Virus genome (UHGV): UHGV-0348865
DNA length: 64,000 nucleotides
From: a virus
Reading direction: 5' to 3' (one strand)
Positions within the stretch are counted from its first letter, which is position 1. Every line of letters begins with the position of its first letter. The notes under the pieces were generated by a model. The model saw nothing but the letters and a program-made list of their open reading frames with translations. It searched no databases and was not told the DNA's origin. This document shows, piece after piece, positions 31,242 to 36,240 of this stretch. Both the position numbers and the translations under genes were made by a program.

Positions 31242-32783
31242 TTAGTAACTCTGATTCCATCTGCTTACGTTTGCCTCATACAAAGAAGCACTTCCGTAGC
31301 TAACGTCATGCTTAGAGCGACCACGATGTGTAACAGAGCACGCTGAATAGCGCATTGCATCCATTAAGTCATCATGTTCTTTAATAATCTTACCAACCTT
31401 ACGGTGATATCTAGCTTTCTCTTCAAATAGCTTAGCGTTAGCGGCTGTGTTAAAGATTTTAAAGCGTCCACTCATCATTCTTTCTCGGATATCCGTGATT
31501 CCCGGTTCTACAAAGAAGTTCTTTTTACCATCCATTCCAATTTTGTTGTAGAAGGTCTCACTCTGTACGTTAACTCCTGCATTCTTATAGAATTGAGCAA
31601 CAGATGAACCACTACCTTTCTCAATATTGTCCGCATCGTGCGGTAGGATGACAGGAATCCACTGACCACGACCATTAATAGCTGGAGCATGATACACTGG
31701 AGTAAAGCCACCTTCTTTATATGAGTCGTAAACATAGATAGTATCCGTGTTTGCATCGTAAGCTGTCCAAACAGCAGCAGTTGGGTGATCAATACCAATA
31801 TCAATTGCACAGACACGTTTCCACGTATCAGGAATTTCGAATGGTTCACATTTAATTGTGTCATCCGATACATCATAAATCAAACCACTTCCTAACAATG
31901 GCATACCTTTCGAACGCATCTCTAACTGCCACGCTGGAATACCTTCAGTCATATCTTTTATATCTTGGTCAGTGATATGTCCACCTAGGTCTGCATGAGC
32001 ATCCCACCAAGAAGCATTCTGGAAATATAGAGAACCTGTGTTCTCATCCCCTTCACCTTTCATAAATTTATCTACCAGTTCAGTTAAACCGTTCTCTGGT
32101 GTAGCTGTAATTGTAACTAGACCTTTAGTTGTGAGTGTACGTGTGACGCACTGTGCGAATATAGCCATAGACTCGTATGGATCTTCTTCGTCTAACCAAA
32201 TGTAGTCAACTGTTGCACCCATCAATGTGTGTTCACCCTGTTGGGTTGAACGGAATTCTAATGTACTTAAACCGTCAAACTCTCCTCTTTCGTTTTGATG
32301 TTTGATTTGTACGATTTGAAGTTTGTTACCATCTCGCTCTATCGTGTCAATGACGATAGCATCACGAGGAATGACACCTGTCCCCAATAAGTTTGTATCC
32401 TTTCCGATAGGCGTACCAAACAATTCCTTTTGCAACACTTTCCTTGTGGAATCCCCTGTAATACCAACTGCCCATGCTAAGATAGGTCTTTTAAATTTAT
32501 ATCCTGTCCACCAAGTTGGGTAGCGACCTGTGACATGACAAGCAAACTCGTATGCCTCGCTGTAAGATTTACCAACACGGTTCGCTGCACACAAGAATCT
32601 AAAGCGATGCTTCAATCCTGCTGCATAAAATTTCTTTTGGAAGTCATACGCCTTGAAAGACAAAATCTTATTATACTTCCTCCATTGGTCACGCTCTTTC
32701 AACATATTCAATAGTGCTTTCTTTTCCTCTACACTAAGGTTGTTACCAGTTAGAGCTTCATAAATTTGTTTATCTAATGACAT
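31242..32783 (-). CDS. terminase large subunit
   Basis: ATPase P-loop FLCAANRVGKSYSEAYE, a WLDEED Walker B-like motif and a C-terminal nuclease region (IDIGIDHPTAAVW); GGAGGA RBS. Confidence 0.9.
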   Translation of the reverse strand: MSLDKQIYEALTGNNLSVEEKKALLNMLKERDQWRKYNKILSFKAYDFQKKFYAAGLKHRFRFLCAANRVGKSYSEAYEFACHVTGRYPTWWTGYKFKRPILAWAVGITGDSTRKVLQKELFGTPIGKDTNLLGTGVIPRDAIVIDTIERDGNKLQIVQIKHQNERGEFDGLSTLEFRSTQQGEHTLMGATVDYIWLDEEDPYESMAIFAQCVTRTLTTKGLVTITATPENGLTELVDKFMKGEGDENTGSLYFQNASWWDAHADLGGHITDQDIKDMTEGIPAWQLEMRSKGMPLLGSGLIYDVSDDTIKCEPFEIPDTWKRVCAIDIGIDHPTAAVWTAYDANTDTIYVYDSYKEGGFTPVYHAPAINGRGQWIPVILPHDADNIEKGSGSSVAQFYKNAGVNVQSETFYNKIGMDGKKNFFVEPGITDIRERMMSGRFKIFNTAANAKLFEEKARYHRKVGKIIKEHDDLMDAMRYSACSVTHRGRSKHDVSYGSASLYEANVSRWNQSY

Positions 32784-32944: not shown

Positions 32945-33418
32945 TTAACTCTCGTCCGCTTCCTCCCCCTTTTCAGCGTCCTCAGAGTTGTCTTCTTCTG
33001 GAGGCATAACGTCGATACCAAGTGCTCCAGTCAAGAAGTCCTTGATTTGTGCATTCAATGATTCTTCGTTGATTACATTCTCTTCCTCAATCTTAACTTC
33101 AACAGAGGCCGCCTTAGGATATACCAGATCTGCAACTTTTGATGCAGCCTTGAATCTAAGATCAGGTGGAATATTAGGATCTTCGTAAATTTGAATTAAC
33201 ACTTCATCAGGAGACAAATGACTTGCAGCAACACGGTCCAACATTAATTGTGTCAGTTTACCTCTACTACCTCTGGGTCGTCCGAATTTATTTCCCTTTT
33301 GAAACTTCCCATTGCTTGGGTTCATACCACGGCTTTCGAGTTCTTCCGTTACTCCGGGTAATCTTCCTGTAACCTCAGCTACCTGTGCAGGCGTGAGTTC
33401 TCCGTTTTCTCCAAACAT
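32945..33418 (-). CDS. putative terminase small subunit
   Basis: 157-aa protein upstream of the large terminase with a basic N-terminal region and acidic C-terminus; assignment mainly positional. Confidence 0.5.
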   Translation of the reverse strand: MFGENGELTPAQVAEVTGRLPGVTEELESRGMNPSNGKFQKGNKFGRPRGSRGKLTQLMLDRVAASHLSPDEVLIQIYEDPNIPPDLRFKAASKVADLVYPKAASVEVKIEEENVINEESLNAQIKDFLTGALGIDVMPPEEDNSEDAEKGEEADES

Positions 33419-33474
33419 TTTATACTCCTTCTACATTATCAACAACACAAAAAGCCTCCCAACGGAGGCAAACA

Positions 33475-34110
33475 TTACTTACAATCACCAACGGACAGGT
33501 TAAACATCTTACCTAGAGCAATCGTCTCACCTTCCCACGGAAGTTCTGCACCCTTCTCTTCCTCTAAAAGAATAGAGCCGTCGACCAAAAATTTTTCGTA
33601 GTCTCGCAGTGCGTCGTCTACTAACTCACTCTTGTGAATCCACGTAATAGTTTCTGTACCATCCTCTTCGATTCGAACATCACGATGCCATTCATCTTTG
33701 GAGGTAATGTAATCATGGAGCATTTCATATTCAGCTTCTTCAATCATCTCAATCATTGCACGAGCGTAGTCAGGGAGGTGATCATGTTTGGTAGATTCAT
33801 ATTCAACTACTTCCAGAGTAGATGGTTGTGTTTTAGTTTTAGAATCAGGGCGAGTAGTATGAATCAAATCTAACATGTTTTTGTTCTCCGTAATAGTTGG
33901 TTTAAGAATACTTCCACTATATAAATCTTGTACAGCTAGTCCTGAAATATTTCCCATAGTTTCTAAATGTTGCAAGCTACAACCAGAACGGCATAGCTGT
34001 GAATTATAATCGTTAAGGTCCATTGCTTTAATGTGGAAAGGAGAACCAGAAGGGAAACTACCTCCATCTCCATAAACACCTTCCATGTTACGTGCGATTA
34101 AACTATTCAT
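33475..34110 (-). CDS. hypothetical protein
   Basis: 211-aa ORF at the head of the minus-strand operon. Confidence 0.45.
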   Translation of the reverse strand: MNSLIARNMEGVYGDGGSFPSGSPFHIKAMDLNDYNSQLCRSGCSLQHLETMGNISGLAVQDLYSGSILKPTITENKNMLDLIHTTRPDSKTKTQPSTLEVVEYESTKHDHLPDYARAMIEMIEEAEYEMLHDYITSKDEWHRDVRIEEDGTETITWIHKSELVDDALRDYEKFLVDGSILLEEEKGAELPWEGETIALGKMFNLSVGDCK

Positions 34111-34357
34111 CTGTCTCTCCCTTACTATAATCTTTATACGTTTCTACTTTGTAAGTGCGGAATGCTCTGAAGAAGAGCCAACCTAAGCTACTCACATCAA
34201 TTGTAATATCGAAATCTGTTTCATCATCTAAATCAACAAGACGACCTAAGCATGTAGCTTCCATCCCTTCTTCAGAGTCACTATTGATTACGAAAGCGTA
34301 TGTCTCTGTTCTAAACCGAGGCACCATCTCTGATAAAAAGTCTAATACTAAATTCAT
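34103..34357 (-). CDS. hypothetical protein
   Basis: 84-aa ORF; first gene of the minus-strand operon. Confidence 0.4.
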   Translation of the reverse strand: MNLVLDFLSEMVPRFRTETYAFVINSDSEEGMEATCLGRLVDLDDETDFDITIDVSSLGWLFFRAFRTYKVETYKDYSKGETDE

Positions 34358-34380
34358 AATTCTTCTCCTCTGAATAAGAG

Positions 34381-34508
34381 TATAAAGGGCACATCATAAG
34401 ACCTACCCGTAAAGGCCTCCTCATACCAACAACCCGTGTACGCTGAAGTAAAGGGCATGTCATAAAGGGGACTTCATGTTAAGGCACCTTCATAAAGGCT
34501 ATATCACG
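34381..34508. repeat. tandem iteron-like direct repeats (6-7 units of about 15-18 bp)
   Basis: Successive units AAAGGGCACATCATAAG / AAAGGCCTCCTCATACC / AAAGGGCATGTCATAAAGG / GGACTTCATGTTAAGG / CACCTTCATAAAGG / CTATATCACGTTAAGG with an AAGG...TCAT...AAGG core. Confidence 0.5.
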
Positions 34509-34670
34509 TTAAGGCTTATCCACCCACGTACTGAATCTCAACTTACCACATTCCTTACACTTCCATGTTGATAGATACAAACCATGTATTCTTTCATCCC
34601 CGTAAGCTTTACGAAGAAGATAGTAATTGTGCTTACACTTCATCCGTCTAAATACTTTAATTAGATTCAT
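34509..34670 (-). CDS. small zinc-ribbon-like protein (53 aa)
   Basis: Only the 3' third of the 139-aa track ORF; internal Met preceded by AGAGAGGA; CKH...CKEC Cys/His pairs. Confidence 0.3.
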   Translation of the reverse strand: MNLIKVFRRMKCKHNYYLLRKAYGDERIHGLYLSTWKCKECGKLRFSTWVDKP

Positions 34671-34819
34671 TAAGTCCTCTCTTAAGCTTATATATAAGAG
34701 TTTAAAATTCTGATTTGACCGAGTGGGGCTAGCCGCTCGCCGCGCGTTTCCTAAAAAGGGGGAGTCCTCATTTAAAAAAGGGTTATTGGCAATGCCTTTA
34801 CCCTCCCTTTCAACGTTCC

Positions 34820-35290
34820 ACCTTTCCCCGTGCCTACTCCCCGTAGTTATTCCCCCGTGTATACTACCCAATACATTACCTACCCGTTTATTTAGTACCC
34901 CTTTAGAGAGTGAGAGAAAGGCTAGCACTGTACAGGCACAATCATAACAGGTCTAATAATACCGTATAGTAACCATTCCGTCCCCCATAGTTTGAATGTA
35001 AATAGTTTCAATAGTTGTTATTATGAGTGCAATAATGATATATGTATTAATTAAGTGGATGATTGTATTTCTTTTAATTGTTTCTTTTATTACTTTCTTT
35101 TTCAGCGTACATGAGCGTAGCGAATGGTCTTTGATGTTTGAGTAATGCTATTAATAGTTAACTAATTATTTAAGTGGTATATTATTACCGCACTATCTTG
35201 CTATGCTTCCCCGTGGTCTGTTCTGCGGTTGTTGTATCCCCGTTTGTCCTGGTCTGTTGGTCTGTTACCCGTGGTGTTACGCTAACGCTA
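34820..35290. repeat. non-coding region with recurrent CCCCGT(G) and GGTCTGTT motifs and an AT-rich tract
   Basis: CCCCGT occurs at least 6 times in about 34825-35280; GGTCTGTT three times near 35215-35265; 34960-35110 is strongly AT-rich. No credible ORF. Confidence 0.35.
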
Positions 35291-35403
35291 CGAATGTTAT
35301 AAAGTAACAATAAGAAGTAAGCTGATTCTCTGAGTATGGAAAGATTAGTAAATTAAATTCCTTTAGTTTTCAGTAGGATGCAAGAAAGTTAGAAAATAAA
35401 TGA

Positions 35404-35431
35404 TTGACAGTCTTTTCCTTTATTATATAGT
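35404..35431 (+). promoter_or_regulatory. sigma70-like early promoter (TTGACA-16-TATAGT)
   Basis: Perfect -35 hexamer and near-consensus -10 about 40 nt upstream of the 35470 gene; a second TTGACA lies directly downstream. Confidence 0.5.
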
Positions 35432-35469
35432 TGTTGACAGTTGATTGAATCTATCTAAGGAATAACGAA

Positions 35470-35958
35470 ATGGCTAAAGCAATGCAGGTAGTTAATCTGG
35501 CAAGTTATGCACTGATTGCCGCGATCGGTGTTAGTGCACTGGTCACATCTCTTTCTGATAAGGCTATCGCTAGTCCTGCTCCTGCAACTGATGCGGCTAG
35601 TGTCTTCTCTAGTTCCATCAATAAGGGTTGGATGATTTGCAACGGTGCGGATAGTGACACCAATCAAATCGTCTTAAAGGTTAAATTCAGTAACGTTTCC
35701 CGTGATGGTCTGGTCGTTAGTACCAAAACACTAGATAATCAGGGCAATGAAGATTTGCTATTGAAGCGTACTGATAACGATCCCGAACTAGTTACCTTCG
35801 GCACTGTACAACGTTACAGTCATGCGAAAGCTGTCACGAATCTGGTCAGTTATGGCCCGATGAACGAATCAATGCTTGCTACCACGGTTTACAATAACGA
35901 AGATAATGCGGTTTATACCGTACACATCAATTTGGCTAACTGTATCGGTGCTAAATAA
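35470..35958 (+). CDS. secreted/periplasmic early protein with N-terminal signal peptide
   Basis: AAGGAATAA RBS; hydrophobic N-terminus VVNLASYALIAAIGVSALVTSLS followed by a Ser/Thr/Asn-rich mature region. Confidence 0.55.
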   Translation: MAKAMQVVNLASYALIAAIGVSALVTSLSDKAIASPAPATDAASVFSSSINKGWMICNGADSDTNQIVLKVKFSNVSRDGLVVSTKTLDNQGNEDLLLKRTDNDPELVTFGTVQRYSHAKAVTNLVSYGPMNESMLATTVYNNEDNAVYTVHINLANCIGAK

Positions 35959-35982
35959 TATTAAATCTAACAGGAAATATTT

Positions 35983-36240
35983 ATGGGAAATGAAACTATC
36001 GCACTGATTGATACACATAATTACGGTGGCGTTACGCTCTCCTTTGATGAATCAACCGACGCTGGTTATTTATCTTTTCTTGCTAAAGGTGAGATACAAA
36101 ATATCCGCTTTCCCGTTGTTTGTCTGGTGCAGGATTATATAACAGTTGGGAAGTATTTGGCGCAACGTGGGATTCTCCTATCGCTGGAAGAAGTGGAACA
36201 AATCAGTGTATCCTTTTTTGGCGAGGATAGCAACCAATGA
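35983..36240 (+). CDS. hypothetical early protein
   Basis: 85-aa ORF with RBS. Confidence 0.45.
   Translation: MGNETIALIDTHNYGGVTLSFDESTDAGYLSFLAKGEIQNIRFPVVCLVQDYITVGKYLAQRGILLSLEEVEQISVSFFGEDSNQ

Follow-up and report, generated by a model that had tools for sequence, protein, structure and literature searches.

We report here that a 64,000-nucleotide stretch of UHGV virus genome UHGV-0348865 (hereafter the window) carries, close to one of its genome ends, an array of short direct repeats that may serve in DNA packaging. The array is real and conserved, belongs with the known short repeat arrays that flank terminal repeats or terminase sites in phages, and is apparently undescribed; we found no description of it in the Kuravirus literature accessible to us, a search that did not extend to the primary phiEco32 papers (Savalia 2008, Pavlova 2012). 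We think it rather probable that the array is bound by protein at the DNA level in association with the genome end. That this binding serves packaging recognition, the array being a cosB-like or T7-SRL-like accessory element, is put forward more tentatively. A packaging role is nonetheless the best-supported reading, since the units are conserved in one orientation near a genome end, on the side of the terminase genes, and since related arrays lie upstream of the small terminase gene in other phages.

These questions bear on a group of phages that are common therapy candidates. The phiEco32-like phages package concatemers with short terminal repeats, yet lack a phage RNA polymerase such as the one by which T7 marks its junction. 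Our analysis defines candidate junction-recognition elements, namely the conserved core of the direct terminal repeat (DTR), a CCTTWA/ATGA array and an ACGGGK cluster. A map of such elements is needed for packaging-competent vectors and for the correct annotation of genome ends.

A specific and conserved array of direct repeats

An earlier note, made from the sequence alone, had placed tandem repeats at 34381-34508, and both these coordinates and the unit core it gave proved essentially right. The full unit, RTGANNNNSCCTTWA (RTGA-N4-S-CCTTWA on the minus strand), has six exact matches in the 64-kb window, all at 34383-34507. This exceeds chance: the plus-strand pattern TAAAGGN5TCA has five exact matches in the window, all within 34383-34506, while shuffled sequences held 0.77 on average and none of 100 reached five. 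The specificity belongs only to the full bipartite unit, since the core 9-mer CCTTTATGA with one mismatch allowed is not enriched across the window (24 matches against 19 expected).

All copies share one orientation, and their period is 14 or 16 bp rather than the 15-18 bp first proposed. Read along the minus strand, the series opens with unit 0 (GTGGATAAGCCTTAA, 34509-34523), which has one mismatch and forms the last codons and stop of a gene for a protein of 53 amino acids (aa). It continues with the exact units 1 (GTGATATAGCCTTTA, 34493-34507), 2 (ATGAAGGTGCCTTAA, 34479-34493; 16-bp step), 3 (ATGAAGTCCCCTTTA, 34463-34477; 14-bp step) and 4 (ATGACATGCCCTTTA, 34449-34463), the last followed by CTTCAGCGTACACGGGT with ACGGGT at 34432-34437. 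Unit 5 (ATGAGGAGGCCTTTA, 34410-34424) is likewise exact and is followed by ACGGGT at 34405-34410, and unit 6 (ATGATGTGCCCTTTA, 34383-34397), also exact, stands directly before the ribosome-binding site (GAGGAG) of an 84-aa gene. The expectation of six to seven consecutive units therefore holds for their number, six exact and one with a single mismatch, but not for their continuity, as only five (34449-34523) are head to tail and the remaining two come after gaps of 39 and 27 bp that hold the ACGGGT elements. CCTTAA units always have two extra bases before the next TGA, which gives the 16-bp step, and CCTTTA units in tandem runs have the TGA directly next, which gives the 14-bp step. The array spans 26-151 bp upstream of the ATG at 34357, close to the 30-150 bp that had been estimated, but this ATG does not begin the first minus-strand gene, as the conserved 53-aa gene lies further upstream.

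Two other explanations of the motif were examined at this level. Host-factor sites (CRP, PhoB, DnaA and IHF) were sought in the array by eye only, and none fits the period or is conserved. Localized nick sites of the tf/LUZ24 type (TACTRTGMC, on one strand and dispersed) were rejected, the window holding 25 at one mismatch against 46 expected and the array none.

We compared the left-end region in 20 relatives, and the array is kept in all 20 at the identical place and in the identical orientation, with 4-7 units as counted by reading the sequences (an automated count truncated locus L006 at two). Among 69 distinct units from 21 phages, the ATGA block carries 1.1-1.7 bits per position and the S before CCTTWA 1.1 bits, whereas the four spacer positions carry at most 0.45; CCTTWA was the anchor of this count, and its own conservation is not independent evidence. 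The phages differ from one another by gains and losses of whole units and by insertions of small genes (loci L009, L010, L015, L017, L018, L020, L021, L001, L008 and L006). Three such genes were seen: one for a 26-aa membrane peptide, which separates the 53-aa gene from unit 1; that of the 46-aa acidic protein phiEco32 gp2, which interrupts the array midway; and a 36-aa open reading frame (ORF; MRFLKELHSLIYK...) after the last unit, with a duplicated ribosome-binding segment. The array region is an insertion hot spot for tiny genes, and the units are kept around each insertion as well as in the reduced 68-kb genomes (LAMP, Bas92-94). A search of IMG/VR, which holds only three relatives, for two consecutive 14-bp units returned none.

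The array lies between the left genome end and the terminase genes

The region 33400-36000 of the window matches about 98 phage records at 80-95% identity, nearly all of them ~77-kb Escherichia or Shigella phages such as NJ01, SU10, SGF2, Paul and phiEco32. On the strength of these matches, we assign the window to Kuravirus (phiEco32-like phages of the Gordonclarkvirinae, podoviruses of the C3 morphotype). The conventional plus strand of phiEco32 corresponds to the minus strand of the window, with phiEco32 position 1 at 34923 and position 193, the end of the DTR, at 34731. Identity with the phiEco32 ends and with the PhageTerm DTR of Paul places a single copy of the 193-bp DTR at 34731-34923 (minus strand). 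The ends of this repeat have been mapped experimentally in phiEco32 and SU10, where they are blunt, and the DTR has been mapped in Paul with PhageTerm (record annotation) and in YF01 with full-length nanopore reads. By homology with these mapped ends, the window has a short, exact DTR, as T7 does, and its termini would be the DTR boundaries 34923 and 34731. Because only one copy is present, the source record is a collapsed or circularly permuted assembly that spans the concatemer junction, with the right genome end running from 34924 upward and the left end from 34923 downward.

Along the minus strand, the DTR (34923-34731) is followed by the array (34523-34383), the small-terminase candidate (33418-32945) and the large terminase gene (32783-31242). 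The array thus has the placement of a cosB-like or pac-box-like element: it is 208-348 bp in from the left genome end, on the terminase-gene side, with the cut that generates the end on one flank and the terminase genes on the other. It had been proposed as a candidate pac site; packaging recognition survives as the best-supported reading, but the array is not itself the terminus or cut site, the termini lying by homology 208-415 bp from the nearest unit. Nor is the surrounding region the ~1-kb non-coding junction that it was taken for, as it holds the 53-aa gene, a putative promoter and the 193-bp DTR.

The large terminase subunit (31242-32783, minus strand) was recognised by its Terminase_6N and Terminase_6C matches. 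We regard the 157-aa protein encoded directly upstream of it (32945-33418, minus strand) as the probable small subunit because of this synteny, because a 50-sequence profile gave as its best matches in the Protein Data Bank (PDB) the Bruynoghevirus small terminases 7joq (E 0.002) and 6w7t of PaP3 (E 0.034), and because the YF01 authors made the same assignment with HHpred. The 157-aa protein is a distant relative of the PaP3 small terminase, to which it also gives a weak pairwise match, and the large terminase is ~39% identical to that of PaP3. An AlphaFold model of the 157-aa protein (pLDDT 68.7) gave no Foldseek match in the PDB below E 0.6, with the PaP3 small terminase at rank 8, and in Pfam and PHROGs none of the four small left-end proteins reached the threshold of any terminase family. 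The small terminase gene had been thought to adjoin the array. We rejected this placement, since the 84-aa and 211-aa neighbours have no terminase family match and the 157-aa candidate is ~1 kb away.

Motifs shared by the array and the junction

Parts of the unit recur across the junction. The 7-mer SCCTTWA occurs 37 times in the window, nine of them within the 571 bp of 34380-34950 where 0.25 are expected (Poisson p ~9e-12). The array accounts for seven of the nine, all direct, and the DTR for the other two, both inverted: GCCTTTA at 34794-34800 and CCCTTTA at 34899-34905 (both plus strand). A one-mismatch unit, ATGATTGTGCCTGTA, lies at the outer DTR boundary in the right-end flank (34931-34945, minus strand), and most relatives have GCCTTAA or GCCTTTA 15-45 bp ahead of their own DTR. 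Comparison with the relatives identified the DTR core, AACCCTTTTTTAAATGAGGACTCCCCCTTTTTAGGAAACGCGCGG... (34731-34783, minus strand), as the most conserved part of the DTR, and as more conserved than the array, and the YF01 paper places the conserved part at DTR positions 130-170. The core holds the element CCCCCTTTT, which all the distant relatives keep, and resembles two T-expanded units, AACCCTTTTTTA-AATGAGGACT-CCCCCTTTTTA-GGAAACGCGCGG.

A second motif, ACGGGK, is also concentrated here: 10 of its 29 window matches, every one a minus-strand match, fall inside the 868 bp of 34405-35272. The DTR holds four of them, the array two and the 53-aa gene one, and the remaining three stand in the right-end flank at exactly 29-bp spacing, together with CAGACC repeats (35209-35272, minus strand). 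The junction ACGGGK motif is conserved in relatives. Covariation of ACGGGK and ATGGGT between DTR and array across genera looked promising in locus L022 and was dropped, as phage 4E8 breaks the pattern.

Related units accompany the terminase module in distant relatives

The comparison was carried beyond Kuravirus to Salmonella phage pSal-SNUABM-01, Proteus phage YP1, Aeromonas phage LAh_9 and four metagenomic contigs, all of which carry a homologue of the small terminase (43-75% identity), the large terminase and a SU10-type portal. All seven keep an element like the DTR core, (GAGGAC)TCCCCCTTTT...CGCG, and the element is present in every examined phage with this small-terminase family (at ~1183 in L023, ~3275 in L025, ~2891 in L028, ~998 in L029, ~2953 in L030, ~2787 in L031 and ~3436 in L024). 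In five of them (L023, L025, L028, L029 and L031), the CCCCCTTTT core is followed at 100-400 bp by 2-5 units of the form RTGANNTSSCAY (TATGACATGGCATCAA and ATGACCTCCCATC are examples), mostly upstream of the small-terminase gene. LAh_9 has looser ATGA-type units, seen by eye. The RTGANNTSSCAY units and the Kuravirus units have the half ATGAC-N-T-S-S-C in common.

The form of the unit follows the terminase. The Kuravirus form is found only where the small terminase is at least 75% identical to that of the window, and the other form only where identity is 62% or less. In L030, whose small terminase is 75% identical, Kuravirus-type units precede a homologue of the 211-aa gene and also stand directly ahead of the small-terminase gene. 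The units thus occur together with the terminase module, upstream of the small-terminase gene, in L023, L025, L028, L029 and L030. The small genes around the Kuravirus array do not share this distribution: they are absent from all the distant relatives, L023, L025, L028 and L029 among them, except L030, which keeps the 211-aa homologue. The simplest history would be an ancestral order of DTR, array and small terminase, with Kuravirus later gaining early accessory genes in and around the array.

Two further features were seen in these genomes. Upstream of the small-terminase gene of pSal-SNUABM-01 (L023, 1560-1600), GTAATG and GCTA separated by 16 nt fit the bipartite late-promoter consensus of phage 7-11. 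In YP1 (L025, 2900-3400), further repeat families, TTTACTATGG and ATGACTAYCCAYTRTGGAAC, lie across the DTR-like core from its units, and because of these extra families junction-flanking repeats appear to be general in this phage group.

A possible role in packaging recognition

The reading that we favour, with the reserve stated at the outset, is as follows. Terminase would recognise the concatemer junction mainly through the DTR core (CCCTTTTTTA-AATGAGGACT-CCCCCTTTTTA...CGCG). The six or seven same-orientation units (ATGA-N4-S-CCTTWA at a 14/16-bp period), 208-348 bp further in on the terminase-gene side, would then act as a multivalent landing pad for an oligomeric small terminase with one DNA-binding motif per subunit. 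Engagement of the units would anchor and orient the motor, such that packaging begins at the left end and proceeds rightwards. The small terminase is the predicted binder of the units, an identification that we consider possible and hold as loosely as the packaging role itself.

The proposed direction can be set against the likely order of genome entry. By the usual last-in-first-out rule, the end that is ejected first is the end that was packaged last. In the related Salmonella phage 7-11, the early promoters that have been validated are all right-end promoters, and the gene for the small-terminase homologue has the late promoter P1 just ahead of it. Early promoters at the right end point to entry of that end first, in which case the left end would be the first to be packaged. 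The same promoter map leaves the related units of 7-11 outside any known early transcript, which favours a role at the level of DNA.

Several observations weigh against this reading. To our knowledge, the function of the analogous arrays of T7 has not been established. The assignment of the 157-aa protein draws on weak profile matches and synteny, and a promoter and a gene stand between the array and the DTR, with ~1 kb from the array to the small-terminase gene. The likeness of Kuravirus units to those of the distant relatives is limited to ~10 bases (ATGACNTSSC), and the division of unit forms by terminase clade is also what plain phylogenetic divergence would produce. Among related small terminases, a binding site has been defined biochemically in one case only, the 20-mer GCCGGCCCCTTTCCGCGTTA that the PaP3 protein binds in vitro, and this 20-mer resembles the DTR core (CCCCTTT..CGCG) rather than the array units, such that the array may be dispensable for recognition. 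On account of this last resemblance, we consider it likelier that primary recognition takes place at the DTR core, with the array serving as an accessory landing pad of the multivalent kind.

Alternative explanations for the array

The array could instead be an operator or binding array for some other protein, encoded by the host or by the phage (an early protein or a DNA-binding protein of the virion). It could then regulate the left-end operon, protect or organise the DNA end or help to duplicate the terminal repeat, in place of a part in terminase recognition. We consider this unlikely, although the array does sit in a transcribed mini-operon that runs from a putative promoter to a terminator, and the distance from the end of the array to the next start codon is 26 bp. 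Asymmetric direct repeats also suit many repressor and centromere-like binding arrays, and the second junction-wide motif, ACGGGK (10 of 29 within 868 bp), means that more than one factor may act here. Set against this, the motif is found nowhere else in the 64 kb, so that a regulator would have a single target, and the small genes beside the array are absent from distant relatives that retain related units. A promoter region was rejected as an explanation, since the array has no sigma-70 promoter by consensus scan and no element of the type recognised with gp36. That element is tAATGTAtA in phiEco32, 6-8 nt upstream of the transcription start and found upstream of genes 6, 13, 26, 40, 58 and 68; the nearest copy to the array is TAATGTAGA at 33438-33430.

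It is quite improbable that the units are functionless, whether as junction modules or as remnants of slippage and illegitimate recombination at a hot spot for accessory genes. Such a history would produce what is seen in the relatives, where three different small genes have been inserted between units, one together with a duplication of the ribosome-binding segment, and where the number of units ranges from 4 to 7; it would also produce the 30-bp higher-order repeat (14+16) of the array. It would not account for motif blocks that stay conserved while the spacers diverge, nor for an array present in every relative, reduced genomes included. Moreover, the motif core recurs in the DTR, and a related array is found in distant relatives without the inserted genes.

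The units can also be read as mini-ORFs of 4-5 codons, ATG-x-x-CCT-TTA-TGA (M-x-x-P-L-stop) or ATG-x-x-CCT-TAA, chained by ATGA stop-start overlaps from the stop codon of the 53-aa gene. Translated from an early left-end mRNA, such a relay would manipulate the traffic of ribosomes or tie up particular tRNAs while the host is being taken over. The ATG is the best-conserved block and its sole common first-base variant is G, giving GTG; CCTTAA units always have two bases more before the next TGA; the lengths of three of the gaps (27, 39 and 57 bp) are divisible by three; and the region is putatively transcribed. Yet the chain arises automatically from the DNA motif and its period, and it is not maintained: the TGA stop is lost in 12 of the 69 distinct units and gaps of 25, 37, 38 and 40 bp break the frame. 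The mini-ORFs lack ribosome-binding sites, the final ORF of the chain (34311-34463) overlaps the start of the next gene out of frame, and related units occur in 7-11-type phages where no early promoter has been validated for them. A known structured RNA is not supported, as an Rfam search of the array gave no match at E up to 1, the RNA folding z-score is -0.66 and neither strand folds unusually. Altogether, we regard a role in RNA or translation as very improbable.

Least probable, with only a slight chance in our estimate, is the iteron-type replication origin that had been offered as the other meaning of these repeats: they are one-orientation direct repeats near a genome end in phages whose origin is unmapped, but the array (GC 0.42-0.49) has no adjacent AT-rich unwinding element, the nearest AT-rich stretch (35000-35099, GC 0.20) lying beyond the DTR, its 14-16-bp units are shorter than typical iterons, and none of the four neighbouring genes has a Pfam or PHROG match to a replication initiator. 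The right-end flank (34950-35300), which is very AT-rich and has repeat clusters at its borders, is more origin-like than the array and would be the better candidate for an origin or an ejection signal.

Genes and signals of the left end

The left-end operon consists of a putative promoter, the 53-aa gene, the array, the 84-aa gene, the 211-aa gene and a terminator. The putative sigma-70-type promoter, GTCAAA...TATATA (34688-34720, minus strand), is the one proposed for SU10 CDS1 (SU10 S2 table); it did not appear in our consensus scan. The 53-aa gene that follows (34509-34670, minus strand; PHROG 7696, E 5e-16) has a C-x-H...C-x-x-C pattern and is present in Kuravirus and Suseptimavirus and absent from the distant relatives. 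In the phiEco32 record (L001, NC_010324), the annotated phi32_1 (296-496) is out of frame with a conserved 54-aa zinc-ribbon-like ORF (253-417) and reads through the units, and phi32_3 (565-744), which overlaps phi32_2, is probably spurious.

Directly downstream of the array is the gene for the 84-aa acidic protein (34103-34357, minus strand), a homologue of phi32_4, followed by the 211-aa gene (33475-34110, minus strand), which has the PHROG label 'ABC transporter' in the moron category. The operon ends at a terminator-like hairpin, GCCTCCGTTGGGAGGC followed by TTTTT (33454-33469, minus strand), and an equivalent terminator is annotated in Paul. Beyond it, upstream of the small-terminase candidate, lies the late promoter element TAATGTAGA of the gp36 sigma type (33430-33438, minus strand), which corresponds to a SU10 late promoter and to the phiEco32 promoter upstream of gene 6. 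Given the hairpin after the 211-aa gene and the late promoter that follows it, the small left-end genes form a transcription unit of their own, apart from that of the terminase and structural genes. Across the junction, a near-consensus sigma-70 promoter (35404-35431, plus strand; TTGACA, 16 nt, TATAGT) faces the early genes and matches the SU10 promoter upstream of CDS125.

Comparison with known packaging systems

Among headful-packaging phages, the P1 pac hexamers and SPP1 pacL/pacR resemble the array in offering multiple short direct repeats as a multivalent terminase site, a function that is only predicted for the array. They differ in that the cut falls in or beside the boxes, whereas the present phage has fixed ends at a distance of more than 200 bp from the array. 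The Bruynoghevirus PaP3 is comparable in its terminase and, at the level of DNA, in its binding site: the CCCCTTT..CGCG of GCCGGCCCCTTTCCGCGTTA recurs in the DTR core of the window and of all relatives examined. The array units, in contrast, have only a CCCTTT-like stretch in common with it.

In lambda cosB, the R sites bound by gpNu1 lie between the cosN cut site and the Nu1/A terminase genes. The array likewise interposes asymmetric repeats between the cut that makes the ends and the terminase genes, on the end that would be packaged first, although for the array binding is a prediction. Lambda differs in its cohesive ends, its three 16-bp sites of mixed orientation and its IHF site, compared with a blunt 193-bp DTR and 6-7 direct units here. 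With these differences in mind, we propose lambda cosB as the closest functional model.

The closest anatomical precedent is T7, which has CCTAAAG three times inside its 160-bp DTR and an array of 13-bp period at nt 175-361, just inside the DTR; our literature search found no useful work on these T7 arrays. Both are short-DTR podoviruses with a same-orientation array of 13-16-bp period inward of the left DTR and with copies of the motif within the DTR. The motif and the phage family are unrelated, however, and the present phage has no phage-encoded RNA polymerase. The T7 array starts 15 bp from the DTR, while here the distance is 208 bp, with a promoter and a small gene between, and the array is inside a putatively transcribed operon. 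There is also no full array on the right-end side, where a single degenerate unit (34931-34945) is accompanied by the ACGGGK and CAGACC repeats of the flank. The analogy with T7 is therefore anatomical, and we do not claim membership of the lambda or the T7 family for the array. It indicates that an unrelated phage family, too, has T7-style repeat arrays next to its terminal repeats.

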